Position numbers and translations under genes: made by a program. A DNA stretch of 21,439 nucleotides from Pseudomonadota bacterium. Lineage in GTDB: Bacteria > Bdellovibrionota > FAC87 > UBA2466. The notes beneath the pieces were generated by a model. It did no database searches. It saw only the letters and a program-made list of their open reading frames with translations, and was not told the DNA's origin. Below are positions 1-21,439 of the stretch, one piece after another (within the stretch, counting starts at the first letter, position 1; every line of letters begins with the position of its first letter). The stretch is taken from NCBI GenBank assembly GCA_043767805.1, contig JAYUGC010000178.1, positions 1 to 21,439 of the forward strand, in the 5' to 3' direction.

Positions 1-857
1 AGGGCGCCGAGCCGTATGCGGCTTTCGATGAAATTGATTTTACCGGCAAACAGCGCGCCCCCGAAAAGACCGACCCAAAGGCACGCTTCCAAGGATCCCA
101 AGGTGCTTGCCGAAGCGCCGAGGGTTTTCTTGATGTAAATGGGAAGCACGACGAGGGTCGGCGTCGAGAAGAAGTTGATGAGACCGAAGCCGATGAGCAC
201 CTTTTTCAAAAAGGGCATTTCCGACATGAGCTGCCAGCCGCTGACCGGCGCCCCTGCTTCCTCCACGGGAGCGATCGCGTAATGGTAGCGAGCGAGCCAG
301 GAACAAGTGGCCGAGATGAGGTAACCCAAAGCCGCGAGCTTCGCCGTGCCGCCAATGCCGACCTTGTCGATGAGCATCGCGCCGGCCACCGCGCCCGCGA
401 AGTTCGCGAGCGATTGGGTCGTCGTCAAAAGCGAGACTGCTCGCTCGACGGAAGGCTTGTCCACGACCTCGGGAACGGCCTTGTTCAAAGTGGGATCGAG
501 AAACCCTTGTAGCGTCGCCGCGACGAGTCCGGCCGCGAGCGCCACCGGAAGCGTAAGGGCATCGAAGTGCACGAGTAGGCCGACGCCGCCCACGACGAGC
601 ACCGCGAGTAGATCGGCCGCGACCAAAATGCGGCGGCTAGAAACCCTATCCACCGTGCGCCCGATGATCTTTACGAGAGCCAGAGACGGCACCGCGGTCA
701 GTACCATGAAGAAGCCGATGAGCTTACCAGCGCCTTCCGGATGGCGAGCGAGCAGCCACCAGATCATCGACATCTGGTACATGCGGCCGCCCGACTGCGA
801 GAGCACCTGCCCCGCCCAGATCAGCAGGAAGTCGGGATTCTTTCGGAAAAAGCTCAC
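1..857 (-). CDS. MFS transporter (partial, runs off left edge; not in ORF track)
   Basis: GTG at 857 overlaps the TGA of the upstream gene (GTGA). Both ends were translated by hand in one frame: MSFFRKNPDFLLIWAGQVLSQSGGRMYQMSMIWWLL...IIGRTVDRVSSRRILVAADLL (MFS motif A, GxxxDRxxRR) and ...LEACLWVGLFGGALFAGK near the window edge. Confidence 0.9.
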   Translation of the reverse strand, partial: MSFFRKNPDFLLIWAGQVLSQSGGRMYQMSMIWWLLARHPEGAGKLIGFFMVLTAVPSLALVKIIGRTVDRVSSRRILVAADLLAVLVVGGVGLLVHFDALTLPVALAAGLVAATLQGFLDPTLNKAVPEVVDKPSVERAVSLLTTTQSLANFAGAVAGAMLIDKVGIGGTAKLAALGYLISATCSWLARYHYAIAPVEEAGAPVSGWQLMSEMPFLKKVLIGFGLINFFSTPTLVVLPIYIKKTLGASASTLGSLEACLWVGLFGGALFAGKINFIESRIRLGA

Positions 858-3499
858 CCGCGGCTCCGTTCGTCGAGCACGGTCTTTAGCTTTCCGCTTC
901 GCGGATTACGCGGCAGCGAGGAAAGCGGGTGGGCTTCGACGTACACGTAGGCGAGAGTCTGGTCGGCCAGGCCCTCCGCGATCTTGTGAGTCTTCGTCAC
1001 TACCGCTTCGCGAATCTCGTTCTCGAGATGAGGATCGTGGCTTTCCGTTTCGATGCGGATGACGATCTCGTCGCCCTTCTGGCCTTCGCGGACCGCTAGC
1101 TGCATCGCGGAAACAGCGAAGCCTTCCAAGGCCGCCGCGACGTCTCTATAGGGCAAATTGATCATGCCAACGCAAATCTGATCGTCCGCCCGGCCCAAGT
1201 ACTCCATGACCCGGTTGCGGCGGCCACAGGCGCATTTTTCGGTTACGAAACGGCCCGCATCGCCTATTTCGTAGCGAATGAGCGGGAATGCGTATTTGAG
1301 AAGGCTCGTGATAAGAATGCGGCCGGGCTGCCCGTCGGGCACCGGAGCGCCCTCTTCGTCGACAAGCTCTATCCAGTTGAAGTCATCAGCCGTGTGATGC
1401 TTAAAGCCCATCATCTTTTCGCACTGGAAGGCGACTTGCCCGCCGTCGTTGGCGCCGATGATGGAGGAGATGCGTTTCGCTCCCACGTTCTCGGTAAGCC
1501 ATTCGTGGTCGGACTTACTCAGGGAAGTGCCGGCGTAGAGAATCTTCGGCATCTTGAGATCGGGCTCGAGGGCTTTGGCTTCGCGAAGCAGCTTCACGAG
1601 ACGGGCCGGAATGGCCTGAATCACGTTGATGTCGAACTGCTTCCAGAGCTTTACGAAAACTGCAGGATCGATGTAGTTAGCAAACGCGAAAGTCGTCGCG
1701 CCTAGCCGAGAGTTGATGTGGTCGAAGGAGACGAAGCTGCCGTAGAGGTCTCCGGCCAGCATGAAGTTCGCGACCCGGTCGCCCTTTTCCATGCCCGAAG
1801 CCCGGAACAAGCGCACCGCGGCCGAAATCATGTGCTCCCAGTCGTGGCCATCATAAACGGAGAACTTGGGCTCTCCCGTCGAGCCGCCGCTACGGGTGAC
1901 GTAGCCACCCGAAATGGCTAGCTTCGTCGCGAGACCCTGCCCATAAGGAGGCATGTTCGCTTCCATTTCCGCCCGGGTGAGCGGAGGAATCTTCACGAGA
2001 TCGGCAACGCCGTCGATCCGCACCCCTTCGAGGCGTTTCGCGTAAAAGGAGCTCTTGCGGGCCTCGTCGAGAAGCCGGCGCAAGCGGGCATCGACGACCG
2101 CTTTGAAATCGGTCTCGCTAAGCGTGTCGATGGCGTCGAGGTTCGAGTCATTGAAACGGCCCACCACGAAGTGGCCAAGCTGAGGCAAGTCGTAAGCGCC
2201 GTCGTGAGGATCATCCACCTCACCCCCGGACATGCCGCCGAGATCGCCCACTTTGAGAGCTCCGGCTTCGGCGAGTCGGCGATACCAGCCGCTTTGCTCC
2301 TCCGGAGCCGCGACCAGGCCGACCGTCTGTAAATACCCGCGAATGCTTTCCGCTTCATTTAGGACGGACTCAACCGTCTCAAAAGGAACGACCCGGAGCG
2401 TGCGATGCAGCGGGGAAGGCTCGATGGCGAGCTTGTGATCCAAAATCACGGTCCAGTCGACGTTGCGGGCGGACCCGCGCACCAACCCCTGCCCTTTGGC
2501 TTCCGCGACTTCAGCGACGCCGCGCCACTTTTGAATTTCGACCGCGACGTTGACGTCCGGAGGACCGGCCGGAAGTTTCGCGAGCTGCGCTTCGAGCGCC
2601 TTAGGCAAAGCTTCGACCACCGCCTTCGCGCAGGCCTCCGTCTCGACGTAACACTGCTGAGGCGCGGTGCAGGCGTTCTGATCCCAAATGGACATTTCCC
2701 AGGCGAGCTTCTCCGCGACCTTCTCGGCGCCCCACGCCGCGAGGCCCGCTTTTGTCACGAGAGAGAGAGAAAGCTTCGGTCCGAATACGATGAGCTTCTT
2801 ACCGGCGCCAAGGCCATCCCGGTAAGCCCGCACGGCATCTTCACTACCCCAGACGACGATGCCGTCGACGCGAACCTTGAAGGCCTCGAGGACCTCCTTC
2901 GCGCTGGAAGGATAATCGATGAGCGCGACCGATCGCGCGACAATGCCCTCTTCATCACACTCGACCAGCGATTCGATGAGCCGCGGCAAAAAAAGCTTCT
3001 CACCCGAGGACATTTTCAAAAGCGTCACGTTGCCGGTGAGAAGGCCCTCGACGAGCGAGCCGATACCGACGAGGAACACGTTTCCGGAGAGAACGTGCAA
3101 AACGACGCCGAGCGGGCTCCACCGCAACTGGGTGCGGCTCTCGTGTAAATAACCGGGGGCTCCGCTGCTGGTGAGACCTTTGAGCTCGGTCTCGACCTTC
3201 TTACGCAAGATATCGGGGCTTAAAGTCCAAACGACTTCGTCCATCCCAAGACGGATCATCTCGGGGGAAAAGCCGGTCGCTTCCGGAAGCTCCGCTTCGA
3301 GCTTCTTTCGCGCCGGATACTCCGGATTCGCCCAAAGCTTGCCGATCCTTTCCAAAACGCGCAGGACTTTGTCTTGAGGGTAAGCGGCGATAGAGGCGCG
3401 GGCGGCGTCCGCCTTGCGGCAAATCGCGGTAACGTCCTCGACCGTCATGGGTTTAGTCGAATCGAGCCATTCTCCAAAAGCGTAGCGAGTGGGCTGCAT
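854..3499 (-). CDS. Fusion of LuxC-like acyl-CoA/acyl-protein reductase (N-terminal) and PaaK/F390-synthetase-like adenylate-forming ligase (C-terminal)
   Basis: N-half has PLGVVLHVLSGNV, WGS, FGPKLS, DQNAC (Cys277) and HDG..L, all LuxC motifs. C-half has RSGGSTGEPK, IGANDGG, PLIRYEIGD, GRADD and RSGK, all PaaK-type ANL motifs. Confidence 0.92.
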   Translation of the reverse strand: MQPTRYAFGEWLDSTKPMTVEDVTAICRKADAARASIAAYPQDKVLRVLERIGKLWANPEYPARKKLEAELPEATGFSPEMIRLGMDEVVWTLSPDILRKKVETELKGLTSSGAPGYLHESRTQLRWSPLGVVLHVLSGNVFLVGIGSLVEGLLTGNVTLLKMSSGEKLFLPRLIESLVECDEEGIVARSVALIDYPSSAKEVLEAFKVRVDGIVVWGSEDAVRAYRDGLGAGKKLIVFGPKLSLSLVTKAGLAAWGAEKVAEKLAWEMSIWDQNACTAPQQCYVETEACAKAVVEALPKALEAQLAKLPAGPPDVNVAVEIQKWRGVAEVAEAKGQGLVRGSARNVDWTVILDHKLAIEPSPLHRTLRVVPFETVESVLNEAESIRGYLQTVGLVAAPEEQSGWYRRLAEAGALKVGDLGGMSGGEVDDPHDGAYDLPQLGHFVVGRFNDSNLDAIDTLSETDFKAVVDARLRRLLDEARKSSFYAKRLEGVRIDGVADLVKIPPLTRAEMEANMPPYGQGLATKLAISGGYVTRSGGSTGEPKFSVYDGHDWEHMISAAVRLFRASGMEKGDRVANFMLAGDLYGSFVSFDHINSRLGATTFAFANYIDPAVFVKLWKQFDINVIQAIPARLVKLLREAKALEPDLKMPKILYAGTSLSKSDHEWLTENVGAKRISSIIGANDGGQVAFQCEKMMGFKHHTADDFNWIELVDEEGAPVPDGQPGRILITSLLKYAFPLIRYEIGDAGRFVTEKCACGRRNRVMEYLGRADDQICVGMINLPYRDVAAALEGFAVSAMQLAVREGQKGDEIVIRIETESHDPHLENEIREAVVTKTHKIAEGLADQTLAYVYVEAHPLSSLPRNPRSGKLKTVLDERSRG

Positions 3500-3500
3500 G

Positions 3501-4628
3501 TTAGTGCCTCCTCACGATATCGGCCGCGGTGATGGCGCAGCCCTTGTGTTTCGCGATTCCACCCCGGCCTACAATCTCAAAGGTCGGTGACTTCCAGCCG
3601 CAGCCGCAAGGGTCTGCGTGCAGATAGCCAATGTCGGTACTGAGAATGGCGAGATTCGGCATCATCGCGTTATAGGGAGTAATGAGCTCGATGAGCCCGT
3701 GCTCGCCGTCAACCACCACTTCCATGGTCTCGGGGTTACGAATCAGAATGCGGTTAAAGACCGGGATATGGTGCCGGTGATTCACGCAAGAAATGTAAGG
3801 CGCGCTGTGCTCGGCCATTCCGTAGAGATCGAACATATCGTCCATCGGAATGCCTAGCGCCTCCGAGACCTGCTGCTGAAACTGCGCCTTGGTGACGGCC
3901 TTGTCTTCTTTCGCCTTCCAGCCGCCGCCGATGATGACCTTGCTCCCCTTGGGAAGCTGAATGGGCTTACCCCGCCGGCGCACTTCCACCACGAGGTCAT
4001 AAAGAAAGCTTGGGATACCGAGGAGGCGCACGGGCGTGCCCTCCTCCGCGAAGCGCTCCATGGCCGCGATGGTCTCGTTCAACCGAAATTCCCATTGACC
4101 GGAAGCATTCAGGCGAACGGCGAAGAATGCTTCCTTGGGGTTCGCAAAGCGCATCTCGTTCTTCGCGGTAAAAGCGATGCCGAGATCCTTCGCTTCGTCC
4201 GGGTGATAAATGAAGACCACGTAATTGGTCGGCTGATCGGTGACGAGACCCGCTTGGCTCCAAAGAACATCCATCATGCTCTGCACGCGATCTAGACTTC
4301 CTTGATCGAACCAAATTTGAGTTTTCTGCCCGCTCGTGCCCGAAGACGTCAGCCGAAGGACCGCCGCCTCTTCAGGGAGAGATGTCAGCAGGTGATACTT
4401 CATCGCCGTCACGTTCAGGGACGGGATGCGGGCCAAATCCTTTTCCTCGCGAACGGTGTCCGGATCGAAGCCGTGACGCCGATAGATGGCGGCGAGCTCC
4501 GGGGAATGGTCGAAATGAAATTTAGCGAGCTCTCGGCACGCCACTACCATGAGCGCGGATTTTTCCGGGGTCCAGTTAGCGGGCTCGTCGATGTGACAGA
4601 GCTCGGTGGAAGCGGGGAATTGATTCAT
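3501..4628 (-). CDS. luxE: LuxE-like acyl-protein synthetase
   Basis: TSSGTSG loop, GGGWK, YGMAEH, ILSTDIG and C-terminal GR.....KGCA (Cys364), matching the LuxE acylation-site motif; 375 aa. Confidence 0.9.
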   Translation of the reverse strand: MNQFPASTELCHIDEPANWTPEKSALMVVACRELAKFHFDHSPELAAIYRRHGFDPDTVREEKDLARIPSLNVTAMKYHLLTSLPEEAAVLRLTSSGTSGQKTQIWFDQGSLDRVQSMMDVLWSQAGLVTDQPTNYVVFIYHPDEAKDLGIAFTAKNEMRFANPKEAFFAVRLNASGQWEFRLNETIAAMERFAEEGTPVRLLGIPSFLYDLVVEVRRRGKPIQLPKGSKVIIGGGWKAKEDKAVTKAQFQQQVSEALGIPMDDMFDLYGMAEHSAPYISCVNHRHHIPVFNRILIRNPETMEVVVDGEHGLIELITPYNAMMPNLAILSTDIGYLHADPCGCGWKSPTFEIVGRGGIAKHKGCAITAADIVRRH

Positions 4629-6094
4629 AGGAGGTGAACCCTTTCGAAGTTTTCACGAATGAGGATGAGCAGCTCTTTCGCGCCGGGACTAAAGACTTGG
4701 ATCTCGCCGAAGTCGACTTTCGTCGGCCCCATGGCCTGAAAGCGAAAGCCCAAGCGTTCCGATTGGTGGTACGGAATGAAGCCCGAGATGAAAAATCCGT
4801 TGTCGGCGAGCCGATCGTAGAGATTGCCGATGCCGGGCGCATCCAGAGGCACTTCGATGCCCGCGTACTGGTAGCCGTTCTTTAAAAGCTGGGTCCAGTC
4901 GCGCAAGATGGCGTCGGCCGCTTTGTGCCCTGGTTTGAAACAGTCGAAGACCACGGCATTTTGCGTCGGCTGTAAATGCATCTGGTACTCGCCGCCAGGC
5001 GGTAGCACGTCGAAACGTGAGGCCGGTACCCAGCTCAGATTAAGCGGTTGTAACAAGAAGCCGACCGCCTCGCCCAGGTTATGGGGCAGTGTGATCTGTT
5101 TGCCGAACGGATACTGAGTGCGCGGAATGATCGAGTAGAGGAGCGAGTAGCGATCGGTCTCGCGAGGATCGTGCCCCATGCCGAGCTTCTCGAGCCGCGC
5201 TTGCGTGTCTTTACTCTGACAGCCCACGAAGATGGACATGGGACAGGGCTTGAACGTTTCGACGAGCTTTTGGCTGTAAACGTGATTGGTGACGAAATCG
5301 AAAAAACAGTAAGACATTTCGGTTTTCGCGACCCGGTCCATGGTCGCCCGGAAAATCTGACTGAAGAGGCCCTTCGATTTCACTCCCGGATGCGTGACGC
5401 CGAGGCAAGGCTCGTACACCTTGGGAGCGTCATTCCATTTCATGAGTCCCACGTTGCCCAAGATGCGGCCGTCGGGAAGCGCCGCCACGATGGAGATGAG
5501 CCGACCGTCCTGAAGCCGCTGACGGATTTGCTCCGGGTAATAGACGAACTCATTGATGTAGTCGTAACCGTAGACCTGATAAAAAAGCTGGGAGAGCTTT
5601 GATTCCTCGCCGACTTCGAGCTCCCGAATGACCATGCCTTCGGTCTCGATGGGCCCGACGACCACCGGGGTCGCGCCCATCCCTCGACGGGAAGCTTCTT
5701 CTCCGAGACGCATGGTGAGCTTCACGGCCTGGCCGTGGCGGCCGAGATTTTCGATACTGAACCGCTCGAGCCCTTGCGCGGCTTCGGTGACGCTTCCGCC
5801 GTGCAGCGCGGGGCCTTCCAGAAAAATCGGCACGCCGCGGTTCAAGACTTCGACGTGCAGCTTTCCTTCCGACTCGAACACGTCGACGCCGATGCGCTCT
5901 TCCGAGCGGCCGCCCGCGTTCTTATCGAGCACCATCTTCATCGCCTGACGAGACGCATTGCGAATGGCCGTGCGCCCGGGCTCTTCCATGCCGAGACCGG
6001 CCGCAAACGCCGCCACGAACTCGCTCGCCGGTCCGAGGCAAGCCTCGGCCGGGGGAAATTCCAGGCGGTTACGTTGTGAGTCGGGTACGGTCAT
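4625..6094 (-). CDS. Degenerate HATPase/anti-sigma (RsbW-like) domain fused to a GNAT acyltransferase domain
   Basis: N-terminal LHVEVLNRGVP and FSIENLGRHGQAVKLTM resemble an RsbW-type fold. After a linker come IRELEVGEE..LSQLFYQVYGYDY and the acyl-CoA motif VTHPGVKSKGLF. ATGA overlaps at both ends. Confidence 0.75.
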   Translation of the reverse strand: MTVPDSQRNRLEFPPAEACLGPASEFVAAFAAGLGMEEPGRTAIRNASRQAMKMVLDKNAGGRSEERIGVDVFESEGKLHVEVLNRGVPIFLEGPALHGGSVTEAAQGLERFSIENLGRHGQAVKLTMRLGEEASRRGMGATPVVVGPIETEGMVIRELEVGEESKLSQLFYQVYGYDYINEFVYYPEQIRQRLQDGRLISIVAALPDGRILGNVGLMKWNDAPKVYEPCLGVTHPGVKSKGLFSQIFRATMDRVAKTEMSYCFFDFVTNHVYSQKLVETFKPCPMSIFVGCQSKDTQARLEKLGMGHDPRETDRYSLLYSIIPRTQYPFGKQITLPHNLGEAVGFLLQPLNLSWVPASRFDVLPPGGEYQMHLQPTQNAVVFDCFKPGHKAADAILRDWTQLLKNGYQYAGIEVPLDAPGIGNLYDRLADNGFFISGFIPYHQSERLGFRFQAMGPTKVDFGEIQVFSPGAKELLILIRENFERVHLL

Positions 6095-7431
6095 ACGTCG
6101 TCAATGGAGTCTACGACCCGGATGAGTTTTCCGGTGCGCGCGTTTCGGGGCAAAGTTCCAGGAGCCAAAAGCTCAATTTCGAGAGGCCAGATGGAGCCCT
6201 TCTTGATGAACTCACTCAAAGAAGGACGAGAGGCCATGATTTCCCGACCGAGGATTTCCGCTTTCGCGGCTTTCTCGGCGCCTTGGAGCTCGCACTCGAC
6301 GCGAATGCAAAGCCGATCGCGGCCGTCGACGCGCTTCTTTTGCATCTGCACCGTGCCCGAGAGCCCGCCGACTTGAGACACCACCGCTTGAATGGCCTCG
6401 TAGTCGACCGAGTCGTAACCAACTCGCAGGACGTCGTCGCCGCGGCCCAAAAGCTTGAAGAGAGGCGTCGTACGCCCACAGGGACAAGCGTCCCCGAGCC
6501 ACTTCGCACGGTCGCCCACGCGGTAACGCACGATGGGCATCACCCGGCGGGGGAACGCGGTAGCGTAGAGCATGCCGACCTTTTCGGGGGGACAGGCTTC
6601 GCCCGTGTCTTCGTTTACGATCTCGAGATAGACCTGATCGTCGTGGGTGTGGAATACGCCGGTATCGGTTTGATCGCACTGATAGCCCAGGTACCAGGTG
6701 TCGACGGTACCATAGCCCGGAGCCTTGATGATCTCGGCTCCGACCTTCTCTTGAATCTCTTTCTTGTCGGCTTCGTAGAGGTGCTCGCCGCCGTAGTAGA
6801 TCTTATCGATCTTCAAGTCTCCGATGCCGAGGGTATGAATCCCTCTGAGCGTATTGAGCACGACACTTCCGATACCGGACAAGCAATTCACTCGGAACTG
6901 AGTGACGACGGTATGGATGAACTCCATCTGGGTGTGATTGGAGAACGGAAAATTCGTGCAACCGTATTGCTGGAGCATCCGGTTGATGTGGACGAAGGTC
7001 ATGTAGAGACTGCCGACGGCCCAGAGATTGGCGACTTTGTCCTTCTCGGTGAGCCCAACGGCCCAGAAGCCGCGAGCGTTCGGAAGATTCAGGCCTTCGA
7101 GCTCGTCGTGGGAAAAGAGCGTCGTTTTCGGAGTGCCGGTAGTGCCGCCGCTCTGAAAAACGGTGTAGTCGTGGGTCGAGGAGGCGAGCAAGCGCTCGCT
7201 GACCGGCGGCACGAGTTCGCGAAGCTCCGAGGCGGTGAGCGGAGCCACTTCCGCGAAGGGCTGAGCGGAGCCGAGCTGGGTCTTCGCCAGACGTTCCCGG
7301 TAGAAGGGAATTTGACTGGCAAAGGTCACGTAAGCTTCGAGACGGCGCGCCATCTCGCGCTGCCGGTCGAAAGCAGAAAGCGTTTCCCACTCGTCGTAAA
7401 AGCGGCCGCGCCGTTCGGAAAGTAAGCTCAT
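6091..7431 (-). CDS. PaaK/phenylacetate-CoA ligase-like adenylate-forming enzyme
   Basis: QSGGTTGTPK, GGEHL, YGTVD, PIVRYRVGD, GRGDD and RTGK motifs; ATGA overlaps at both ends. Confidence 0.9.
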   Translation of the reverse strand: MSLLSERRGRFYDEWETLSAFDRQREMARRLEAYVTFASQIPFYRERLAKTQLGSAQPFAEVAPLTASELRELVPPVSERLLASSTHDYTVFQSGGTTGTPKTTLFSHDELEGLNLPNARGFWAVGLTEKDKVANLWAVGSLYMTFVHINRMLQQYGCTNFPFSNHTQMEFIHTVVTQFRVNCLSGIGSVVLNTLRGIHTLGIGDLKIDKIYYGGEHLYEADKKEIQEKVGAEIIKAPGYGTVDTWYLGYQCDQTDTGVFHTHDDQVYLEIVNEDTGEACPPEKVGMLYATAFPRRVMPIVRYRVGDRAKWLGDACPCGRTTPLFKLLGRGDDVLRVGYDSVDYEAIQAVVSQVGGLSGTVQMQKKRVDGRDRLCIRVECELQGAEKAAKAEILGREIMASRPSLSEFIKKGSIWPLEIELLAPGTLPRNARTGKLIRVVDSIDDV

Positions 7432-8369
7432 GGAGTCACCTGCTGCTGGGGAAAGAAGCGATCGAAGCGAGGGCTACGCAGATTGGCCGGGCCGCGCTGG
7501 GCCGCCGCTGCATTCAGGCGCTGAATGGCTTTCGTCTTCGGAGAAAATTGCGGGATCGGCTCTTCGCCCGTGAGATCGCCCAGGAGCTCTAAGAAGTAGC
7601 CGCGGTAATCGACGAACTGCGTGCCGATGGTCAGGCCGTCGAACTTAAAGCGATCGGTCTCTGTCTCGTTTACCGAGATGAAGTAAGTCGCCTCTGACTT
7701 CGCGTTGGTCTCCCACGCCTCGATGGTGCCAAATTTGGCGGGCAGAAACCCTTCCTTGGTCTCGGGCTTGAAACCGAGCTCGATGATGGCGTCGCCCGTC
7801 GTGCCCGCGGGATCTTTCGTGGCGTCCGGCATAATCGTGTCGGGGGAAGTGAAGTAGAGCTTCGCCTGCCCGTTCTTGTCCCAAACACTTCTCACGATGC
7901 GCACCCAGTCCTCGAGAAGGAGCGCCGTTCCGGGCGCGATGGGCGCGGTCATGATGGGATCGATGGCGTACCATTTCTGGGTTTCGCTCCCTTTCACCAG
8001 AGTCGTCACGTGAAAGCGCCATTCCGGATCGGTGCCCGAGCGCAAATCGCCGATAATGAAAAGCTTGCGAACGCTGGCCGCGGAGAGGCCGAGCTTTCTC
8101 CCCATGAGATGCACGCCGAGTGAGCGCCCAAAACAAAAACCGATGAAGCCATCCGGATCGTACTTATCGAGGTTCAGGAGATCGGTAACCGGATGCCGGG
8201 AAACGGCATCAAACACGCTTTCGCGCTCAGCCGCGGAGAGGGCTGACAAAGTCTCCGGGGATTTGCCGGATAGTTGTTCGTAACGATGGAGAGCCGTCTC
8301 TTCTGGACCGCCCAAGGCAGTAAGACCGACAAAGCTCAAAACTAGTAAAAGCGACCGCACCGAAATCAC
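7428..8369 (-). CDS. Secreted protein-glutaminase-like (papain/transglutaminase fold) Cys-His-Asp enzyme
   Basis: N-terminal signal-like peptide. GFCFGR (C79), KLFIIGDL, WRFHV (H120) and AIDP (D137) parallel the recalled Chryseobacterium protein-glutaminase motifs GCYAR, KQFVYGNL, WSYHV and IIDP. Confidence 0.72.
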   Translation of the reverse strand: MISVRSLLLVLSFVGLTALGGPEETALHRYEQLSGKSPETLSALSAAERESVFDAVSRHPVTDLLNLDKYDPDGFIGFCFGRSLGVHLMGRKLGLSAASVRKLFIIGDLRSGTDPEWRFHVTTLVKGSETQKWYAIDPIMTAPIAPGTALLLEDWVRIVRSVWDKNGQAKLYFTSPDTIMPDATKDPAGTTGDAIIELGFKPETKEGFLPAKFGTIEAWETNAKSEATYFISVNETETDRFKFDGLTIGTQFVDYRGYFLELLGDLTGEEPIPQFSPKTKAIQRLNAAAAQRGPANLRSPRFDRFFPQQQVTP

Positions 8370-8619
8370 CTCTTTTGCCTCTCATCGCAAGGCTGTTCCC
8401 AGGTCGGCCTTCTAACACATCCCATCGCGGCGCATCAACCGACGGGACCGCGAAATATCCGCTTTAGGAATCAGCGGTTAAGTCCTCTGAACCCCCTTCG
8501 CCGGAGGTCGTCCCGGCAGGGTTGTCGAGAGAGCCTGACAGGCAGGCTGAAAGCGGTGGGGTAACGGATGAAATTCAAGGGCTTGGGGGGGTAAAGGGAG
8601 TCTGGTCGCCAGAGCCGGA

Positions 8620-10017
8620 ATGCCCGATAATGGAGAAATGCACAGCCACGGATGGGGTTTCGGCCGTTTCACCTTGGGCCTTCTTTTTCTCGTGAGTCCC
8701 GCCTTTGGAAGCAAACCCCTCCCTTTAGCGCCGGGCGCGAGCTCTCCGCCCCCCGTGACTTGGAGCCAGTGGCTAAACGGAATTTTCGGCTCGAGTCCGG
8801 CCCCGGCGCCCGCCCCAAAAGCCCCGCCGCCCGCGCCGGTGAAGCAGCCGGAGCCCGCCAAAAAAGCGGAGCCCGCGAAAAAGGAAGTTCCCGCCAGCGG
8901 TCCGGCCAAAAAGAAGACCGTGGCTCTGCTTTGCTTCAACAAGCCCAAGACGGCCATGGAAGCGGGCTGCAAGAAAATTAAAGAAATTTTGACCGAGAAG
9001 AAATGTCAGGACGCGGTGGACTTCGTCGAAATCCCCGCGAACTCGGACCCGGCTCAGGTGCAAGCTTTTCTCGAAGAGAAAAAACTGCCGAAGGACACCA
9101 TCGTCCTGGTCAACGCGCACTCAGGCAACGTCAGCCAACTCGTGACGGAGACTATCGATCCCAAGACCAAGAAGAAAAAGTCCATCTTGGAGAGCCTCGA
9201 AGACTGGCAGGCCCGGGTGAAGCAAGGGGATCAAAATACCTTCCCGCGCGGCGAAGGTCAGAAGGAAATCTCCGGAAAAGAGCTGCGAAAAACTCTGATG
9301 ACCACGCTGGGCACTCCTTCCCTTTGGTTTGATACCTGCGGAGCCGGAGGGCTTTGCCGGTCCGAGGCCTGCGCGGGCGGCACTTGTAAGGCCGCCGAGC
9401 TAACCATCAGCCTGCGGGACGACGAATGGGTCAGTCCCCCTACGCTTCAAATCCTTTCCCTGCTCTGTAACCCCCAACTTCGCAAGGACGCCGACACCAA
9501 CCACGACGGCGTTTTGGACGGCGAGGAGCTGGAGACCGTGTTTTCCTGCGACGCCAAACGCTACCCGCCCTCGAAAAGCCACAACTTCGGTCCGAGTGAG
9601 GAATTTACGAATGGTTTGGCTCCAGGTTTAAGCAAAAAAGAACGGGAAGCGAAAATCGTCGAGCACATGAAAGAGAGAGACGAGTACTACGCCCAAATTC
9701 TGACTCAGTCCCTCGGCGAGTATCTCTACTATTCTCCGAAAGAGCTGAGCGATCATTTCGCCAAAGACCGCGCCGAGAAAATGCAAAAAGCCTATTCCAA
9801 GGTTTTAGTGCGCGAAGGCATTTACGACAAAGCTAACCAGAGCCTCGATCTGAAGAAGCTGCGTAAATTCGTAAAAGTGAAAAATGAGATTTTAGGGTAC
9901 GGCAATCACCTGATCACGGTGAGCTTGCCGCCCGGTGAGTCCACGCCCGAGTGCTATTGGGGCGGCATGGAACCGTTCTTCCCGGACGTGAAAAATCTGG
10001 AAATACCGACCCACTAA
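8620..10017 (+). CDS. Putative exported clan CD (caspase/legumain-fold) peptidase-like protein; start may be ATG 8638
   Basis: Signal-like LTLGLLFLVSPAFG, then a Pro/Ala/Lys linker, then VALLCFN, IVLVNAHSG (H167), ISGKEL, LWFDTCGAG (C240) and ADTNHDGVLDGEEL. Confidence 0.6.
   Translation: MPDNGEMHSHGWGFGRFTLGLLFLVSPAFGSKPLPLAPGASSPPPVTWSQWLNGIFGSSPAPAPAPKAPPPAPVKQPEPAKKAEPAKKEVPASGPAKKKTVALLCFNKPKTAMEAGCKKIKEILTEKKCQDAVDFVEIPANSDPAQVQAFLEEKKLPKDTIVLVNAHSGNVSQLVTETIDPKTKKKKSILESLEDWQARVKQGDQNTFPRGEGQKEISGKELRKTLMTTLGTPSLWFDTCGAGGLCRSEACAGGTCKAAELTISLRDDEWVSPPTLQILSLLCNPQLRKDADTNHDGVLDGEELETVFSCDAKRYPPSKSHNFGPSEEFTNGLAPGLSKKEREAKIVEHMKERDEYYAQILTQSLGEYLYYSPKELSDHFAKDRAEKMQKAYSKVLVREGIYDKANQSLDLKKLRKFVKVKNEILGYGNHLITVSLPPGESTPECYWGGMEPFFPDVKNLEIPTH
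8851..8886 (+). repeat. Imperfect 18-bp tandem repeat encoding EPAKK-x twice, in a low-complexity linker
   Basis: gagcccgccaaaaaagcg followed by gagcccgcgaaaaaggaa. Confidence 0.6.
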
Positions 10018-10077: not shown

Positions 10078-10914
10078 TCAGTTAAGAGCTAAACCGTTGT
10101 GGTAGGCGAGGTATAGGTCGAGGTGGGCTTGGAGGCGTTCGACGCGTTTGGTGGTGACCCAGATCCTTCTCAGTAGGCGGCTAAGATCGGCTCGAAGTTT
10201 TGCTGAGACGTGGTTGACAGAAAACATCGGGTCATCGGGATTTCTTCTGGAGCCTTCGGGCCGAAAGGTTTTGGATGCACTCGGAACGGCGATGTGGGTG
10301 GTACCAGGCAGAATAGCCCTAATCAAAGGGCCGTAGCTTGGGTGTTCATCGGTAGTGAGAGTAGCGGCTTCACTTAGTCGCTTCAGCACCCTTCTACGGA
10401 TCTGGGGGCGGTGATCCCTTCTCGGACCGTACTTGCGAAACGCAAACGCCGCGAGCCGTCCCTTGTAGGGCATCTTCCCCACCTGGATGTCGACGATTTT
10501 TCGAGATCCGGTCTCAACGGCAAGGGCAACGCTCACGGGCTTAAGTCGCGTGTGCTCGAAACTTTCCATCTCATCGAACTCGAGATGGAGAAACTTCTGC
10601 GAATTGAGCCACGCTTCTTGGGCGGTCCTTGCCCGTAAGGCGAGAAAGAGGAACTTCCGCACCACCGTCGTGCGACTCACCCTTAATACCCGAGCCATGC
10701 GCCGCTGAGTGAGCGTGGAGCAGTAGAGCTCGAAGATGACTTTGTTGAGATAGGGCTTTTTCTGGCGAAAGGTTGGGTGATCGGTGCGACTAGAAAACGT
10801 CTTGCGACAGAGCTTGCAGTAATAGCGCGTCACACGCTTTCGACCCCAACGGGTAACAAAATACCCGTGGCGCACTACCTCCTCGCCTCCACACCTTGTA
10901 CAGCTCCCTCTCAC
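10078..10914 (-). CDS. IS1/IS1595-like transposase (zinc ribbon, HTH, DDE/N domain)
   Basis: CTRC...RYYCKLCRKTF zinc ribbon; TQRRMARVLRVSRTTVVR HTH; EFDEM and LTTDEHPSY catalytic motifs; SVNHVSAKLR at the third catalytic position. Confidence 0.88.
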   Translation of the reverse strand: MRGSCTRCGGEEVVRHGYFVTRWGRKRVTRYYCKLCRKTFSSRTDHPTFRQKKPYLNKVIFELYCSTLTQRRMARVLRVSRTTVVRKFLFLALRARTAQEAWLNSQKFLHLEFDEMESFEHTRLKPVSVALAVETGSRKIVDIQVGKMPYKGRLAAFAFRKYGPRRDHRPQIRRRVLKRLSEAATLTTDEHPSYGPLIRAILPGTTHIAVPSASKTFRPEGSRRNPDDPMFSVNHVSAKLRADLSRLLRRIWVTTKRVERLQAHLDLYLAYHNGLALN

Positions 10915-11019: not shown

Positions 11020-11028
11020 CTAACGCCA
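11020..11028. repeat. Target-site duplication, right copy (CTAACGCCA)
   Basis: Identical to 10014-10022. Confidence 0.9.
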
Positions 11029-12462
11029 GGTGTGGAGGAAGTTCGTGAAGGATCGGTGCCACTGGGGCGAAGCTTCAAACCCGTATGTCACCGGCGACAC
11101 CACGACGAAGCTGATGACAAGCAGCGCCGCGACCACATAGTAGGAAAGCCGCTGCTTACGTAAGCGCGACGACACGATCCACCCTGCTCCGTCGAGCCAA
11201 AGCGCGACGAAGATAATGCCGAACACGAGCGGCGTGAAGTAGTGGTAGAGAAAGAGCGCTCTCGGAATGAACGCCATTGGCAAGTAAGAAAGCACGAACC
11301 CGGAAAGCGGAATCCATTGCAGCGATCGCGCTTTCTCTCCGCCCGAGGCGAGCTTTAAGCTCGTCACCTTCCCCATGACGGTTACGCCGAGAATGAGGAG
11401 GAGCAAGAGCGAGATGCCGCCCCAGAGCACGGGATTGCCCCAAAGAAAGATCGCCTTGGCTCCATCGGCCCAATAAAAAATGGGCTTGCGATCGATGAGC
11501 CACTCCCACCACTTGCTGGAATTCGGATGAGTCGCGGTGAGAAAGTAATTGGCGCGGAACATGACCGTTTGCAGACCGACGACGTTACCCACGACGGAAG
11601 CGGTGGGCTTAAAGAAGGCGTCGCCCTGTCCCGGTTTGGTGAGCAGCGCGAAGTGCAGCACGAAACCCGCGATGTAGACGGGAATCGCGCCGAGAAGAAT
11701 GAGGCCGAGTCCCTTCACCCCGAACTTGAAATTATCCAGAGTCCGGCGCCCAAACCACGTGCAGAAGAGGACTACGGCCATGAGACCGATACCGGCCGCG
11801 CCCGTCACCTTGGCTCCGATGGCGAGGCCGCTCAAAGCGCCCGCTCCCAAGAGCCAAGCCCAACGCTTACGCGTGCTGCGTTTCAACGCATGCAGGAAGA
11901 CGACGAGTGATCCAAAAAAACTCGAGAGTAAAATGGAGTCCAGTCCCAAAACTCTGGACTGCAGAACGAGGGCGTTATCCAAGGTTACCGCGAGCCCCGC
12001 TAAAAAAGCCGCGGGTCGTGAGGCTCCCAGCTGACGCATGAGAAGCCAAACGAGCAGTGGCAGCAACGCTCCCATTAACGCCGGAAACCAGCGCAGCGCC
12101 CAGGGATTCACATCCCCGTAGGCCTGACCAATATTTTGAAACGGAAAGCCGCCCTTGTACCCCGCCGAAACCGCGGCCGCGGCCAAGATGAGCTTCGCGT
12201 GCGGCGGATGGATGTCGAAAAAGCGTTCCTTGGTGCAGCAGTATGCGGTGATGAACTTTCCGAAATGAACCTCGTCGAAAACCACCGATCTCGGTCGGCC
12301 GAGATAAGCCCCGTGAATGAAAAGACTGACCATCAAAAGAAAACCCGGCGCCTTCCAGCGCGGGCTAGAGGCCGCTTTTTTCACGGAGGGCGAAGTGCGT
12401 CGAACGACCGTGCGCTCGGAGCCCTCGTTGAACGATCTGAGTTTTCTAGGCTTTAGCGCCAT
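11020..12462 (-). CDS. Lipid-carrier-dependent glycosyltransferase, PMT/GT39 (protein O-mannosyltransferase-like)
   Basis: VVFDEVHF, FDIHPP, HPNSSKWWEW, GNPVLW and LFLYHYF motifs with many TM helices. Start reassigned to ATG 12462 because the 12573 start lies deep in the upstream gene. Confidence 0.88.
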   Translation of the reverse strand: MALKPRKLRSFNEGSERTVVRRTSPSVKKAASSPRWKAPGFLLMVSLFIHGAYLGRPRSVVFDEVHFGKFITAYCCTKERFFDIHPPHAKLILAAAAVSAGYKGGFPFQNIGQAYGDVNPWALRWFPALMGALLPLLVWLLMRQLGASRPAAFLAGLAVTLDNALVLQSRVLGLDSILLSSFFGSLVVFLHALKRSTRKRWAWLLGAGALSGLAIGAKVTGAAGIGLMAVVLFCTWFGRRTLDNFKFGVKGLGLILLGAIPVYIAGFVLHFALLTKPGQGDAFFKPTASVVGNVVGLQTVMFRANYFLTATHPNSSKWWEWLIDRKPIFYWADGAKAIFLWGNPVLWGGISLLLLLILGVTVMGKVTSLKLASGGEKARSLQWIPLSGFVLSYLPMAFIPRALFLYHYFTPLVFGIIFVALWLDGAGWIVSSRLRKQRLSYYVVAALLVISFVVVSPVTYGFEASPQWHRSFTNFLHTWR

Positions 12463-13453
12463 GACGATATACGGCTTCCACGATGTAGAGCGGACGGCGC
12501 TGGGTATTGCGGTGGGTACGCACCACATACTGGCCCAAGATCGCGAGTCCAATGAACTGCAAATTGAGAACACCGAGGCCCACAGCCGTCAGCCAGAACG
12601 TACCGTCCGCGGCCCAGCGACCGAGCAAAGCACCGGTCAAAGCCACGATGCCGACGGCGAGACTAGTGACGACCCCGACGCCCGCAAGAAATAGAATAAG
12701 CTGCGCCGGGAAAGAGGAAAACCCGGTGATGTTGTCGAATGCGAGACGGACGAGTTTCGTATAGCGGTACTTGCTATAACCCGCGGCGCGGGGACGCCGG
12801 CGAAAAGAAAGTCCGGTCTGCCTAAATCCGATCCAGCTGATGAGACCGCGAAAAAAACGCGGGTCCTCGCGCAAGCCCCGAAATACGTCCACCACCCGGC
12901 GATCCATCAAACGGAAGTCGCCCGCGTCGGCGGGAAACGGGAAATCGGCGATGGACGACATTAAGCGGTAAAAGATATAGGACGTGACCTTTTTCAAAAT
13001 ACTTTCGCCATCTCGTTTCGCGCGCACGCCATAGACCACTTCGAAACCCTCGCGCCACTTGCGCGCCATTTCGAGGATGAGCTCGGGCGGATCTTGTAAG
13101 TCGGCATCGATGACGATGACCGCCTGACCCGCGGCCTGGTGTACGCCGACGGAAGTCGCAATCTCATGACCAAAGTTACGAGCCAGGCCGATGACCGCGA
13201 CTTTAGCGTCGGCCGCCGATAGCCGGATGAGAATCTCTTTCGAGCCGTCCTGACTGCCGTCATCGACGAAGAGAATTTCGTAAGGCTCCTTCAAGCGAGT
13301 GAGCGTGGCCGTGAGCTCGTGGTAAGTCGTCTCGATGACTTCCTTTTCGTTGAAGACCGGAACGACAATGGAGAAAACGGGCACTTCCGCCGCGTCGGCC
13401 TTGGGGGCCGAGCGAGGAGCTTTGCGCGCTAGTTGTACGCTCGATTTAGCCAC
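12446..13453 (-). CDS. GT2 polyprenol-phosphate glycosyltransferase (GtrB/ArnC-like)
   Basis: SIVVPVFNE, VDDGSQD, RNFGHE, IDADLQDPPE, GDFRLMDR and RFFRGL motifs; two C-terminal TM helices, then RPLYIV. Confidence 0.93.
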   Translation of the reverse strand: MAKSSVQLARKAPRSAPKADAAEVPVFSIVVPVFNEKEVIETTYHELTATLTRLKEPYEILFVDDGSQDGSKEILIRLSAADAKVAVIGLARNFGHEIATSVGVHQAAGQAVIVIDADLQDPPELILEMARKWREGFEVVYGVRAKRDGESILKKVTSYIFYRLMSSIADFPFPADAGDFRLMDRRVVDVFRGLREDPRFFRGLISWIGFRQTGLSFRRRPRAAGYSKYRYTKLVRLAFDNITGFSSFPAQLILFLAGVGVVTSLAVGIVALTGALLGRWAADGTFWLTAVGLGVLNLQFIGLAILGQYVVRTHRNTQRRPLYIVEAVYRHGAKA

Positions 13454-17620: not shown

Positions 17621-19023
17621 TCTTCGCCCTGAACCCATGGGCGGCGCCGGGTCAGCAGATTCAAAATCGGCGTCGTCGCAAACGTCGTGACCAGCGCCAT
17701 GAAGACGAGCATCGCAAAAAGCTGCGGCGAAATCACCTTCATATCGAGACCGATGTTGAGGACGATGAGCTCGACGAGACCGCGGGTATTCATTAGAACG
17801 CCCAAGGCGGCGGAATCGATCCAGTTGAGTCCCGTGAGCTTCGCCGCGAAAAGCGTTCCGCCGAATTTTCCCACCGTCGCGACGAGAACGATCATGCCGC
17901 ACATCGCCCACTCTTCTCCGGTGCTCAGTAATCCGAACTGCGTTCGCATACCCGTGAAGGCGAAGAACGCGGGTAGGAACAGAATTCGCACCAGGTCGTC
18001 CAAGCGATGGGCCAAGTCCTGGGCAATACGGCTGTCGTGCGGGATGACCGCGCCCAGGAGAAAGGCGCCGAAGATGGCGTGGATGCCGATGATTTCGGTC
18101 GCAAGCGCTGAAAGGAGTAGCGCCACCATGATGAGCGCCATGCCGCCTTCGGTGATCTTATCGAACTTTTCTAGCAAAGGGACGACTTTAGCTATGAGGG
18201 GACGGGCCAGAAAGAACATTCCCGCCACGTAAGCGATGGTGAGAATCAGCGTGTAAACCGCGCCACCGAACTTTGCTTGAGTGATGCTGACTACGAAAGC
18301 GAGTAAACACCAGGCCGAAACGTCATCCACCGCGGCGCACGTGAGCGCGATGGTTCCCATGCGGGTCTTGTGCACGCGCCGGTCGGTCAAAATACGGGCT
18401 AAAACCGGGAATGCCGTCACCGATAGCGAAACGCCCAGAAAGAGCGCGAAACTTCGAAAGGGGACCTGGCTACTCGACAGGATGGGATAGAGATAGAGCG
18501 CGAGGCTCGTGCCCATGATGAAGGGGACGATGATGCTCGCATGGGAAATCGCGAGCGTCGCGTGGCCCGACTTGCGGAGCAGCTTCAAGTCGAGCTCGAG
18601 CCCGACGATAAACATGTAAAGGATGACGCCCAATTGCGCGATGATTCCCAAAAAGGGCGCCGCCGACTTGGGTAGCAAAAACTCGTAGGTGGTGGGCCAG
18701 AGATGGCCCAGAAACGAAGGGCCCAGCAGAATCCCGCCGACGACTTCACCGATGACGGCGGGCTGGCCAATCCATTTGAAGGCTCCGCCCACGGCACGAG
18801 CCGTGACGATGACCACCGCGAGGGAAAGCAGCACGTGGAGCAACATGTTGATTTGTTCTGGGGCCTGGCTCGCGCTCAGTCCTTCTCCGGGCATCTGGGG
18901 GGCCACGAGAGTCGAGCCCATATGATCGACGGCGGAAATAGCGAGGATTCCCAGCGCCATTACGCAGAAATAGATGAAGAAGGTCAGTCCCTTGTTGCCT
19001 GATCTGAGTCTAGAAAGTGCCAC
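17617..19023 (-). CDS. Cation:proton antiporter (CPA2/Kef-type Na+(K+)/H+ exchanger)
   Basis: GQPAVIGEVVGGILLGPS, TAFPVLARIL, AAVDD, IFGAFLLG, GKFGG and MNTRGLVEL motifs; exact start uncertain. Confidence 0.94.
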   Translation of the reverse strand: MALSRLRSGNKGLTFFIYFCVMALGILAISAVDHMGSTLVAPQMPGEGLSASQAPEQINMLLHVLLSLAVVIVTARAVGGAFKWIGQPAVIGEVVGGILLGPSFLGHLWPTTYEFLLPKSAAPFLGIIAQLGVILYMFIVGLELDLKLLRKSGHATLAISHASIIVPFIMGTSLALYLYPILSSSQVPFRSFALFLGVSLSVTAFPVLARILTDRRVHKTRMGTIALTCAAVDDVSAWCLLAFVVSITQAKFGGAVYTLILTIAYVAGMFFLARPLIAKVVPLLEKFDKITEGGMALIMVALLLSALATEIIGIHAIFGAFLLGAVIPHDSRIAQDLAHRLDDLVRILFLPAFFAFTGMRTQFGLLSTGEEWAMCGMIVLVATVGKFGGTLFAAKLTGLNWIDSAALGVLMNTRGLVELIVLNIGLDMKVISPQLFAMLVFMALVTTFATTPILNLLTRRRPWVQGED

Positions 19024-19068
19024 CGGCGAACTATAGCGGCCCAGAGACGGTGTGTATAGACCCTGTCC

Positions 19069-19833
19069 TTAGCGCTTAAGAACGAGTTCCACGGGGCAAT
19101 GATCGGACCCTTTGACCTGCGGTTGATGGGCGGCGGCCTTTAACCGATCCTTAAACTCCTGATTCACCACGAAGTAGTCGAGGCGCCATCCCACGTTCTT
19201 TTCCCGGACCCCCGGGCGATAGCTCCACCAAGTGTAGTGACCCGGGTCGGGATTGAACTGGCGAAAGGTGTCGACGTACCCGGCTTCGAGAAACTTATCC
19301 ATCCACGCGCGCTCTTCGGGAAGAAAGCCGGCGTTGTCTTGGTTCGTTTTGGGATTTTTGAGATCGATTTCTTTATGCGCGATGTTGAAATCGCCGCAAA
19401 GAACGAGATTTTTGCCGAGCTTTCTTTGGCGCTCCAGAAAGTTCAGCATCTCATCGCAGAAAGCGAGCTTATCCGGAAGTCGCGAATGATCGCGCCGGCT
19501 GTTGGGAAAGTACGCGTTCACCACGCTGAAATCTTTGAAGTCGACGGTGACCACCCTACCCTCGGCGTCGATGCTCGGATTGCCGATGCCGCATCTCGCG
19601 TCGAGCGGTTCCTTTTTTGTGAAGGTCGTGACTCCGCTGTAGCCCTTCTTCTGCGCGCAGTGAAAAACGCTGTGGTAGCCGAGCGGATTGAGCAGCTCCT
19701 CGGTGAGCTGCTCGGTCTGGGCTTTCACTTCTTGAAGGCAGAGGACGTCGGGCTTGTGGGCCTCGATCCAGGGGAGAAAGCCCTTTTGAGCGACCGAGCG
19801 GATTCCGTTTACGTTCCAGGAAAGGAGCTTCAT
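19069..19833 (-). CDS. xth: Exodeoxyribonuclease III / AP endonuclease
   Basis: SWNVNGIR, LQEVK, GYSGV, EGR, YFPN, GDFNIAH, YTWWSYR, GWRLDY and SDHCP motifs. Confidence 0.97.
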   Translation of the reverse strand: MKLLSWNVNGIRSVAQKGFLPWIEAHKPDVLCLQEVKAQTEQLTEELLNPLGYHSVFHCAQKKGYSGVTTFTKKEPLDARCGIGNPSIDAEGRVVTVDFKDFSVVNAYFPNSRRDHSRLPDKLAFCDEMLNFLERQRKLGKNLVLCGDFNIAHKEIDLKNPKTNQDNAGFLPEERAWMDKFLEAGYVDTFRQFNPDPGHYTWWSYRPGVREKNVGWRLDYFVVNQEFKDRLKAAAHQPQVKGSDHCPVELVLKR

Positions 19834-19924
19834 GCGCAGGGGACTTTAAGGCGCGCCACGCCGATTTCAAGCTTTAGCCGTCCACTGGCAGTGTGGCCCT
19901 TCTCAAGACTTCCTGTCTACAACC

Positions 19925-20875: not shown

Positions 20876-21223
20876 CGTTCCTCGTTTGGCTTCGCGATCT
20901 AAGCGAACGATGACTCCCTCCTTTCTCCTGGAGCTTCGTGATATCTCGGACACAAGCAAAACTCGTTGAGCTAACTTCAAAAAGTGTGGAAATGAGTTCA
21001 GGCAGGGTATCGCGTGCAAAACTGTCGTATTCTTTGAACTATGGCGAAAACTTGAGCGCTTAGCCTTAACTCTGATTTCGGCATGAAGGCGCCGGGCACC
21101 CACAAATCAATTGCCTGATGTATTGATGTATTCCTGTTCAGCAGTGTAAGAAGTCTCGACACTCCGAGCACCGATTATGCGAGTCGTGTACTCAAAGTAA
21201 TCGAGAACTCTCGAAGCTAATAG

Positions 21224-21439
21224 GGTCACCCGGGGGCGCAGCTTGCTCCGGTCAAAGATCCTGAGGTTATCGAGACGATCGATATCGACCGAAAGCGGCT
21301 TCCGCCGGGTCGCTACACGCACGTTGGTTACGATAAGAGACAGGTTATCGATATCATCGTGTCCCGACAGGTGACGGAGTACCGAGCGGAAGTGGTAAAA
21401 GACGAGCGGGGCAATGAGTTCGTAGCTCAATTTCCCAAG
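21224..21439 (+). pseudogene. 5'-truncated IS66-family (single-ORF ISBst12-type) transposase fragment, runs off right edge
   Basis: Hand translation GHPGAQLAPVKDPEVIETIDIDRKRLPPGRYTHVGYDKRQVIDIIVSRQVTEYRAEVVKDERGNEFVAQFPK shows the GHxG, RQVxDI, VTEYR and AxFP pattern. It is immediately preceded by in-frame TAA TAG. Confidence 0.75.

Follow-up and report, generated by a model that had tools for sequence, protein, structure and literature searches.

The contig JAYUGC010000178.1 (GenBank assembly GCA_043767805.1, Bdellovibrionota) was analysed over a stretch of 21,439 nucleotides, here called the window, which carries at its left end an operon encoding relatives of the LuxC and LuxE enzymes. 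According to the list of open reading frames (ORFs) of the window, the operon comprises six co-directional genes, all on the minus strand at 3-8369 (Table 1). Reading the junctions directly off the letters shows ATGA overlaps at 7428-31, 6091-94 and 4625-28, a lone spacer base (3500) between the stop codon at 3501-03 and the start codon at 3499, and a GTGA overlap at 854-57 that joins the fusion gene and the MFS gene. This is exactly the layout described in an earlier sequence-only reading of the window, and the six domain labels proposed there (secreted Cys enzyme, ligase, HATPase-GNAT, LuxE, LuxC-ligase and MFS) all stand when compared with Pfam, NCBIfam, structure models and relatives. Upstream of the first gene, 8370-8619 is the sole non-coding gap of appreciable size. 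A scan for consensus promoters and terminators gave no sigma-70-like site and no terminator in 8300-8700, so the presumed operon promoter is placed in this gap by position. The long plus-strand ORF 6076-7425 overlies the ligase gene in antisense and is typical of the spurious frames that arise in DNA of 59% G+C.

Table 1 Features of the LuxC/LuxE-type operon in the window
Feature	Position	Strand	Description
Secreted Cys-His-Asp enzyme	7428..8369	-	313 aa, GTG start at 8369, first gene
Stand-alone PaaK-like adenylate-forming ligase	6091..7431	-	446 aa
GHKL-like domain + tandem GNAT	4625..6094	-	489 aa
LuxE-like acyl-protein synthetase	3501..4628	-	375 aa
LuxC-like thioester reductase + PaaK-like ligase fusion	854..3499	-	881 aa
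MFS exporter	3..857	-	First 285 of ~405 residues, cut by the left edge of the window
Intergenic, presumed operon promoter region	8370..8619	.	Position only, between the operon and the divergent gene 8620-10017

The LuxE-like protein matches the Pfam family LuxE (PF04443) at 1.1e-40 (140.2 bits, cutoff 24.9), and the 881-aa fusion matches LuxC (PF05893) at 1.8e-78 (264.7 bits, cutoff 21) over residues 40-441. The fusion consists of a LuxC-like part (residues 40-445) followed by a PaaK-like ligase (residues 456-878) that also matches Pfam AMP-binding, and its matches in the PDB include both PaaK (4r1l, 107 bits) and LuxC (7xc6_A, 77 bits). The ligase half scores 81-100 bits with the NCBIfam PaaK and DVU_1553 models, and the stand-alone ligase is matched by Pfam AMP-binding (1.8e-8) and AMP-binding_C_2 as well as by NCBIfam PaaK models (3.7e-35; 88-121 bits). 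Neither ligase unit reaches the PaaK equivalog models TIGR02155 and NF041878 (81-121 bits against cutoffs of 646-700); the label PaaK-like refers to their fold and family only. The lux equivalog level is likewise not reached, with 103.9 bits for LuxC (NF052251, cutoff 750) and 93.3 bits for LuxE (NF052244, cutoff 550). Other NCBIfam leads, i.e., the DVU_1553-family ligase, FlxY, BagE/FevW and F390 synthetase, scored far below their cutoffs and were rejected as memberships. The truncated transporter gene at 3-857 matches MFS_1 (3.2e-16) and MFS_3 (3.1e-13), and a full-length homologue of 404 aa is found in L003, one of the related loci described below.

The residues expected to carry the chemistry are retained throughout. 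Cys277 of the LuxC domain (QNACTAPQ) is invariant in all 33 family members and all five outside sequences compared, aligning with the cysteine of true LuxC. Similarly, all 29 family members and all five outsiders, true LuxE included, retain the C-terminal Cys364 of the LuxE-like protein (KGCA), which aligns with the KGC motif of Photobacterium LuxE, whose Cys362 is called catalytic in a review (PMC12655506). The P-loop of the LuxE-like protein is invariant over the same 29 members and five outsiders, again including true LuxE; the ligase P-loop is conserved as well, and Lys870 at the C-terminus of the fusion is invariant in 33 of 33. Because these catalytic Cys, P-loop and Lys residues are invariant, the enzymes of the operon are very likely active.

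The 489-aa protein itself has no Pfam or NCBIfam match. Its AlphaFold model (pLDDT 84) displays an N-terminal alpha/beta domain and then a tandem GNAT, giving a HATPase_c_2-like domain (about residues 1-130) that a linker connects to the GNAT acyltransferase tandem (about residues 150-489). The best PDB matches of the model in Foldseek are GNATs (ArsN, PAT, SpeG) at E ~4e-7, and in a protein atlas the sequence falls with clusters bearing Acetyltransf_1 and HATPase_c_2. Among 34 aligned relatives, Acetyltransf_1 is found in 11 and HATPase_c_2 in four (E up to 0.1). The best PDB matches of the family profile are SpoIIAB (E 0.023, residues 6-131) and RsbW (E 0.18), and the position of the G1-box Asp, located by eye, is taken by Asn85, which is nearly invariant in the family. 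The GNAT call is thus solid, and the GHKL (HATPase_c_2-like) call for the N-terminal part is probable but weak. Proteins of ~490 aa combining HATPase_c_2 and GNAT also form large atlas clusters in Actinomycetota, Thermodesulfobacteriota and Bacillota, so this fusion is much more widespread than the operon described here; no described function was found for such fusion proteins.

The first gene encodes a 313-aa protein that scores 17.5 bits (E 0.005) with Pfam Gln_deamidase_2 (PF18626), below the cutoff of 25. In its AlphaFold model (pLDDT 86, pTM 0.84) the fold resembles that of protein-glutaminases, which make up the top six Foldseek matches at E 1.6e-5 to 1.3e-3, the best at probability 1.0, with TM-scores of only 0.33-0.49; arylamine N-acetyltransferases are among the weaker matches. 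PF18626 clusters account for 24 of the 30 matches to this enzyme in the protein atlas, being commonest in Bdellovibrionota, and the family is precomputed in 13 of 120 listed relatives. Residues C79, H120 and D137 are invariant across 29 sequences of the family, and 28 of the 29 members carry a hydrophobic N-terminal stretch. Taken together, the protein is predicted to be a secreted enzyme of protein-glutaminase/transglutaminase-like fold with a Cys-His-Asp triad, below the Pfam cutoff for PF18626. It shares secretion, the papain/transglutaminase-like fold and the triad with the protein-glutaminase of Chryseobacterium proteolyticum (PDB 2ZK9, 2KSV, 3A56; PF18626), and the His motif WRFHV aligns with WSYHV. 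It differs from that enzyme by an extra C-terminal beta-rich region and by being encoded inside a biosynthetic operon.

To follow the operon beyond a single contig, 52 loci (denoted by L and a number) were gathered from one-genome-per-species contigs via an alignment of the relatives of the 489-aa protein. Since the scan used patterns specific to the GHKL-GNAT protein, versions of the kind discussed below from the leup cluster proper and from actinomycetes could not appear among them. The loci derive from Bdellovibrionota (21, including Oligoflexales and Silvanigrellaceae), Elusimicrobiota (20) and Riflebacteria (two), and the remaining nine are labelled only as (delta)proteobacterial or "bacterium". 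The closest, L001, is a metagenome-assembled genome of Pseudobdellovibrionaceae with a 489-aa protein 83% identical to that of the window, and a cultured carrier is the myxobacterium Pendulispora brunnea (LZC95_30115 and LZC95_30125). Searching the 52 loci with tblastn recovered the GHKL-GNAT protein in all 52 (by construction), the stand-alone ligase in 47, LuxE in 43, the LuxC domain in 37, the ligase half of the fusion in 35, the Cys enzyme in 33 and the MFS exporter in 32, with many of the misses at contig ends. Wherever both are present (35 loci), the LuxC and ligase halves are adjacent. The full set of eight domains is found in 23 of the 52 loci, and 20 of these have them in the order of the window, on one strand and within 12 kb. 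The gene arrangement is therefore not chance, and the conserved synteny, the lack of which would have counted against the sequence-only reading, is strong.

These relatives also revealed a component missing from the gene list of that reading, whose six genes otherwise hold. Directly after the MFS gene lies a seventh conserved gene of ~386 aa, found in 26 loci by ORF clustering and in 34 by tblastn (e.g., L003:16427-17590 and L001:16245-17612). Judging from its place in the relatives, it must lie just left of window position 1 in this genome. Its product appears to be a second tandem GNAT, distantly GNAT-like: a paralogue in L001 matches Acetyltransf_1 at 7e-6, and an HMM of the family touches the GHKL-GNAT family at E ~1e-4. 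L001 and L002 each have a second copy of the seventh gene a few kb beyond the first, on the other strand. When all ORFs of the loci were clustered, no other neighbour family occurred in more than three loci, and no regulator or receptor gene was conserved.

The absence of luxA, luxB, luxD and luxG from the window was borne out, as genes tile its whole length and none belongs to these families. A tblastn search with true LuxD from a luxCDE plasmid gave no match in either the window or the 52 related loci, and there is no luxAB or luxD past the corresponding edge in L001, where their presence just beyond the window would have spoken against a luciferase-free operon. Nor does the operon hold an ACP, LuxD, FAS or FadD-type gene. 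True LuxE from the luxCDE plasmid aligns with the LuxE-like protein of the window at 24% identity (81 bits) and true LuxC with the fusion at 27% (101 bits), and LuxE and LuxC of PDB 7XC6 score 78 and 77 bits, respectively. These lux scores of 77-101 bits contrast with 223-284 bits to the leup-type and actinomycete proteins considered below. Compared with the lux LuxCDE complex (PDB 7XC6), the window enzymes belong to the same LuxC and LuxE families and retain the same catalytic cysteines, while LuxD and LuxAB are missing and a ligase is joined to the reductase. In the lux mechanism, as outlined in bioRxiv 10.1101/2025.08.11.669332, an adenylate leads to an enzyme thioester and, by NADPH reduction, to an aldehyde, and by analogy the window enzymes presumably share this adenylate, thioester and aldehyde chemistry. 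Annotation labels such as "LuxC/LuxE, bioluminescence" on genes of this kind are misleading.

A closer counterpart is offered by the leup gene cluster. Its hosts reportedly include Klebsiella oxytoca/michiganensis, Photorhabdus and Xenorhabdus, and Li and colleagues are said to have described in 2020 a product built by "discretely expressed ligases and accessory enzymes". The reference locus of K. oxytoca (NC_016612.1) lists under consecutive tags an MFS protein, a LuxE/PaaK-family acyltransferase, an acyl-CoA reductase, a PaaK-family ligase and a GNAT (bioRxiv 10.64898/2026.08.25.747093). Hamchand et al. (PMC11480411) connect the cluster with leupeptin and with a pyrazinone that derives from it via cleavage, cyclisation and oxidation, and they call leup narrowly distributed. 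The window operon has these five part types co-located, with the same number of ligase units and with neither a non-ribosomal peptide synthetase (NRPS) nor a luciferase.

A homologous operon available for direct comparison was found on a plasmid. Searching plasmids by tblastn with the 881-aa fusion gave 243 records, and the nine that cover at least 80% of the query are seven from actinomycetes and two from Salmonella enterica. The Salmonella plasmid CP054717.1 (L053, 105717-111475) holds four genes over 5,759 bp in leup gene order, encoding an acyl-protein synthase (375 aa), an 802-aa "AMP-binding protein" that is a LuxC-ligase fusion, a PaaK-family ligase and a GNAT. Both this operon and its counterpart on CP053580.1 are carried by conjugative plasmids of the IncF type and have genes for a Tn3-family transposase, a recombinase and toxin-antitoxin systems on their flanks; two more Salmonella plasmids bear fragments of the first gene of the operon (~90% identity over 495 bp). 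The window LuxE aligns with the Salmonella protein over its full length at 34% identity (223 bits), the fusion at 27% over residues 73-878 (246 bits), the stand-alone ligase at 28% (117 bits) and the GNAT at 29% over residues 154-281 (58 bits), the last match taking in motifs characteristic of the family itself (FYQVYGYDYI against FREVYGDRYVY, VTNHVYSQ against VCSHSYSQ). The reductase-ligase fusion of the window is thus seen in the Salmonella operon too. It is expected in leup itself, where leupABCD spans 5,831 bp and the leupA-to-leupB amplicon 1,235 bp (Cosic et al., PMC8283571): these sizes fit the genes of the Salmonella operon and suggest a Klebsiella reductase gene of ~2.4-2.5 kb, hence a fused one.

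The actinomycete plasmid cassettes (Streptomyces sp. W1SF4 p1 and Kitasatospora sp. NBC_00070) have the order ligase-MFS-GNAT-LuxE-fusion. The window proteins resemble them at 35% identity for LuxE (240-243 bits), 29% for the fusion (276-284 bits) and, in Streptomyces, 32% for the MFS protein, and the ~380-aa GNAT of the actinomycetes corresponds to the product of the seventh gene (22-28% identity, 72-99 bits). The GHKL-GNAT protein and the secreted glutaminase-like gene are both absent from these cassettes, and the gene order is different; no characterisation of them was found in the literature searched. At a larger scale, the window LuxE was matched by 1,467 proteins (E up to 0.001) in a HMMER scan of 1.84 billion representatives. 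Rank 14 among them, with 251 bits, falls to the representative closest to the LuxE-like proteins of Salmonella and the actinomycetes; the representatives closest to true LuxE reach ~105 bits. For 10 LuxE-like representatives, the cluster members named were Clostridia, Bacteroidota and metagenomes, with no Klebsiella or Photorhabdus among them.

Based on these comparisons, the six genes and the seventh probably form a leup-like, NRPS-independent line making an exported small N-acylated peptide aldehyde. The steps of this line are drawn by homology, and those of leup from its architecture and its reportedly discrete ligases. A GNAT would acylate the first amino acid from acyl-CoA, after which the stand-alone ligase and the C-terminal ligase half of the fusion would adenylate carboxylates and form two amide bonds. 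The LuxE-like enzyme would then adenylate the terminal carboxylate and load it on its own Cys364, from where the LuxC-like domain would take the acyl group on Cys277 and reduce it with NAD(P)H to the aldehyde. Following export by the MFS pump, the secreted Cys-His-Asp enzyme would act outside the cytoplasm, most likely by amide hydrolysis in the exported product as a maturation or unmasking step. Such processing is favoured because the enzyme is exported and of an amidase-type Cys-His-Asp kind; that it unmasks the compound or converts it to a cyclising amino aldehyde is a tentative proposal, held with low confidence. The sequence-only reading had seen in the operon luciferase-free LuxC/LuxE chemistry repurposed to make an exported acylated or aldehyde-derived metabolite. 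The exported, acylated and aldehyde-bearing product is retained here, whereas the idea of a novel repurposing is not: leup is a characterised precedent for the chemistry, so that interpretation holds only in part. Identity with a characterised pathway, which would have overturned it, is approached in part: leup holds the same five part types, and the plasmid operon in leup order is homologous gene for gene to the core of the window operon.

Several observations weigh against such a leup-like assignment. The comparison was made with the Salmonella operon rather than with the Leup proteins of K. oxytoca or Photorhabdus, and the link to leup therefore consists of annotation, gene order and that operon. 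The K. oxytoca primers leupA_f and leupB_r, as given in PMC8283571, have no match in the Salmonella operon at up to three mismatches, so this operon is no near-identical version of the K. oxytoca cluster. Gene order differs too, with MFS-LuxE-reductase-ligase-GNAT in leup against Cys enzyme-ligase-GNAT-LuxE-fusion-MFS-GNAT2 here. A LuxE tree of 36 rows (29 members of the LuxE ORF cluster including the window, five outside LuxE-like proteins and two ligase outgroups) left the deep forks unresolved, with saturated lux and Azospirillum branches; pairwise and library-wide scores were relied on for this reason, and no clade is claimed. As identities are low (27-35%), the substrates may be quite different, perhaps not amino acids at all. 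Finally, L010, L014, L018 and L019 have ample flanking sequence yet no LuxE or LuxC beside the ligase-GNAT pair. In L010, L014 and L019 a LuxC-ligase gene apparently lies elsewhere on the same contig, and the cassette is probably split there.

Other products have been considered for the operon. The main product could be a signal rather than an inhibitor, in which the Cys enzyme cleaves an N-capped di- or tripeptide aldehyde after its export, and the freed amino aldehyde cyclises to a pyrazinone-type autoinducer. This scenario follows the Leu-Arg pyrazinone that arises by proteolysis of leupeptin and serves as a signal in K. oxytoca (PMC11480411), and it would give a role to the secreted amidase-type enzyme recurring in 33 of 52 loci. 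Yet the nearest structural relatives of this enzyme deamidate Gln side chains and are not backbone cutters, and the operon lacks a conserved receptor or regulator beside it, the neighbour families otherwise staying at three loci or fewer, which leaves a signal as the main product unlikely. A classical fatty-acid reductase, with LuxE and LuxC supplying fatty aldehydes or alcohols that end up in lipids, waxes or lipo-amino acids and the GNATs acting as N-acyl amino acid synthases, appears improbable. The proteins do belong to the Pfam families LuxC and LuxE, and there are precedents outside bioluminescence, such as the LuxC-like reductase TabE acting on fatty thioesters (bioRxiv 10.1101/2025.08.11.669332) and an Aeromonas flagellin glycosylation island with ACP, reductase, ligase, luxE and luxC (PMC7874193). 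However, the operon has no ACP, LuxD, FAS or FadD-type gene, its ligases are PaaK-type, its nearest homologues are in leup-type and actinomycete clusters rather than in lux, and the scores stay far below the NCBIfam LuxC and LuxE equivalog cutoffs. A fatty-aldehyde or lipid role is disfavoured on these grounds, and a glycan or flagellin role like that of the Aeromonas island because the cassette is not accompanied by a conserved glycosyltransferase.

The secreted enzyme could also be pictured as a transglutaminase or acyltransferase that uses its Cys-His-Asp triad to attach the exported compound to envelope proteins or glycans. Transglutaminases and arylamine N-acetyltransferases have the same fold as protein-glutaminases, the latter transferases are among its weaker Foldseek matches, and genes for a PMT-family protein O-mannosyltransferase and a GT2 glycosyltransferase lie nearby at 11020-13453. 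The PMT neighbour nevertheless recurs only in L001, no glycosyltransferase accompanies the cassette in a conserved manner, and the best structural matches are hydrolytic glutaminases. Such surface modification is thus improbable, and the envelope modifier listed among the earlier product options is left without support. The N-acylated peptide aldehyde remains the preferred product.

The rest of the window encodes a 465-aa protein, an IS1-like transposase, the PMT and GT2 glycosyltransferases, a 426-aa protein, an OMP-like protein, cytochrome bd subunits I and II, a Na+/H+ exchanger, an EEP-family nuclease/phosphatase and a PlsC-like acyltransferase, followed at the right edge by a partial ORF (21107-21439). 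The divergent 465-aa protein (8620-10017, plus strand) has a signal-like N-terminus and a Pro/Ala/Lys-rich stretch, is kept in L001 only (42% identity), and has just a weak EF-hand match and no PDB relative. Two of its motifs, NAHSGN and FDTCGAGG, look by eye like the His and Cys motifs of clan-CD (caspase-like) peptidases; a caspase-family gene also adjoins the Streptomyces cluster in L054. Between this gene and the PMT gene lies the IS1-like transposase gene (10078-10914, minus strand; NCBIfam 2.7e-17, below the cutoff), probably a recent insertion because L001, the closest relative, has no such gene at that place. The PMT ORF (11020-12573) and the ORF of the PgfS/ArnC-like GT2 protein (12446-13453), both on the minus strand, overlap by 128 bases as called, and the true PMT start is probably further downstream.

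Among the related loci, the stretch of L001 that immediately follows the seventh gene and separates the two GNAT paralogues (17647-19988) encodes a trypsin-like serine peptidase and an FHA-domain protein. The proximity of such a protease to what may be a protease-inhibitor pathway, seen in this locus only, is perhaps not accidental. In the Elusimicrobia loci L010, L019 and L030, the pair of ligase and GHKL-GNAT genes is preceded by a gene of cluster c10 (685 aa), annotated as MFS in L019 only, and the pair in its split form (L010, L014, L019 and L030) sits among housekeeping genes (PtsI-like, ProRS).

The pathway type is already known from leup, and what is new here is the gene order, three extra components and the host range; no description of this version of the cassette was found in the literature searched. 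Relative to leup, the cassette adds the second tandem GNAT and the secreted protein-glutaminase-like enzyme, and its GNAT protein is 489 aa long with an extra GHKL-like domain and a tandem GNAT, against 294 aa in the leup-type operon. The window type is found in Bdellovibrionota, Elusimicrobiota and Riflebacteria, whereas leup is a gammaproteobacterial cluster. To our knowledge, no ligase-based, non-NRPS route to peptide aldehydes has been described outside Gammaproteobacteria to date. Leupeptin and similar small peptide aldehydes strongly inhibit proteases and also serve as precursors from which pyrazinone signals form.

It could be speculated that the extra components give the leup logic a two-compartment, prodrug-style form, in which a capped peptide aldehyde is built in the cytoplasm, exported by the MFS pump and unmasked by the secreted amidase to yield a protease inhibitor or a self-cyclising pyrazinone-type signal, with the GHKL-like domain making the first acylation ATP-gated. 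This elaborate form, a rather doubtful one, would be without precedent among predatory Bdellovibrionota and in Elusimicrobiota, where it might control secreted proteases. Should the leup-like assignment be true, the range of the pathway would widen to predatory and uncultured groundwater bacteria, the GHKL-GNAT fusion, the second tandem GNAT and the secreted glutaminase-like enzyme would be added to its parts, and the cassette would point to new aldehyde products.

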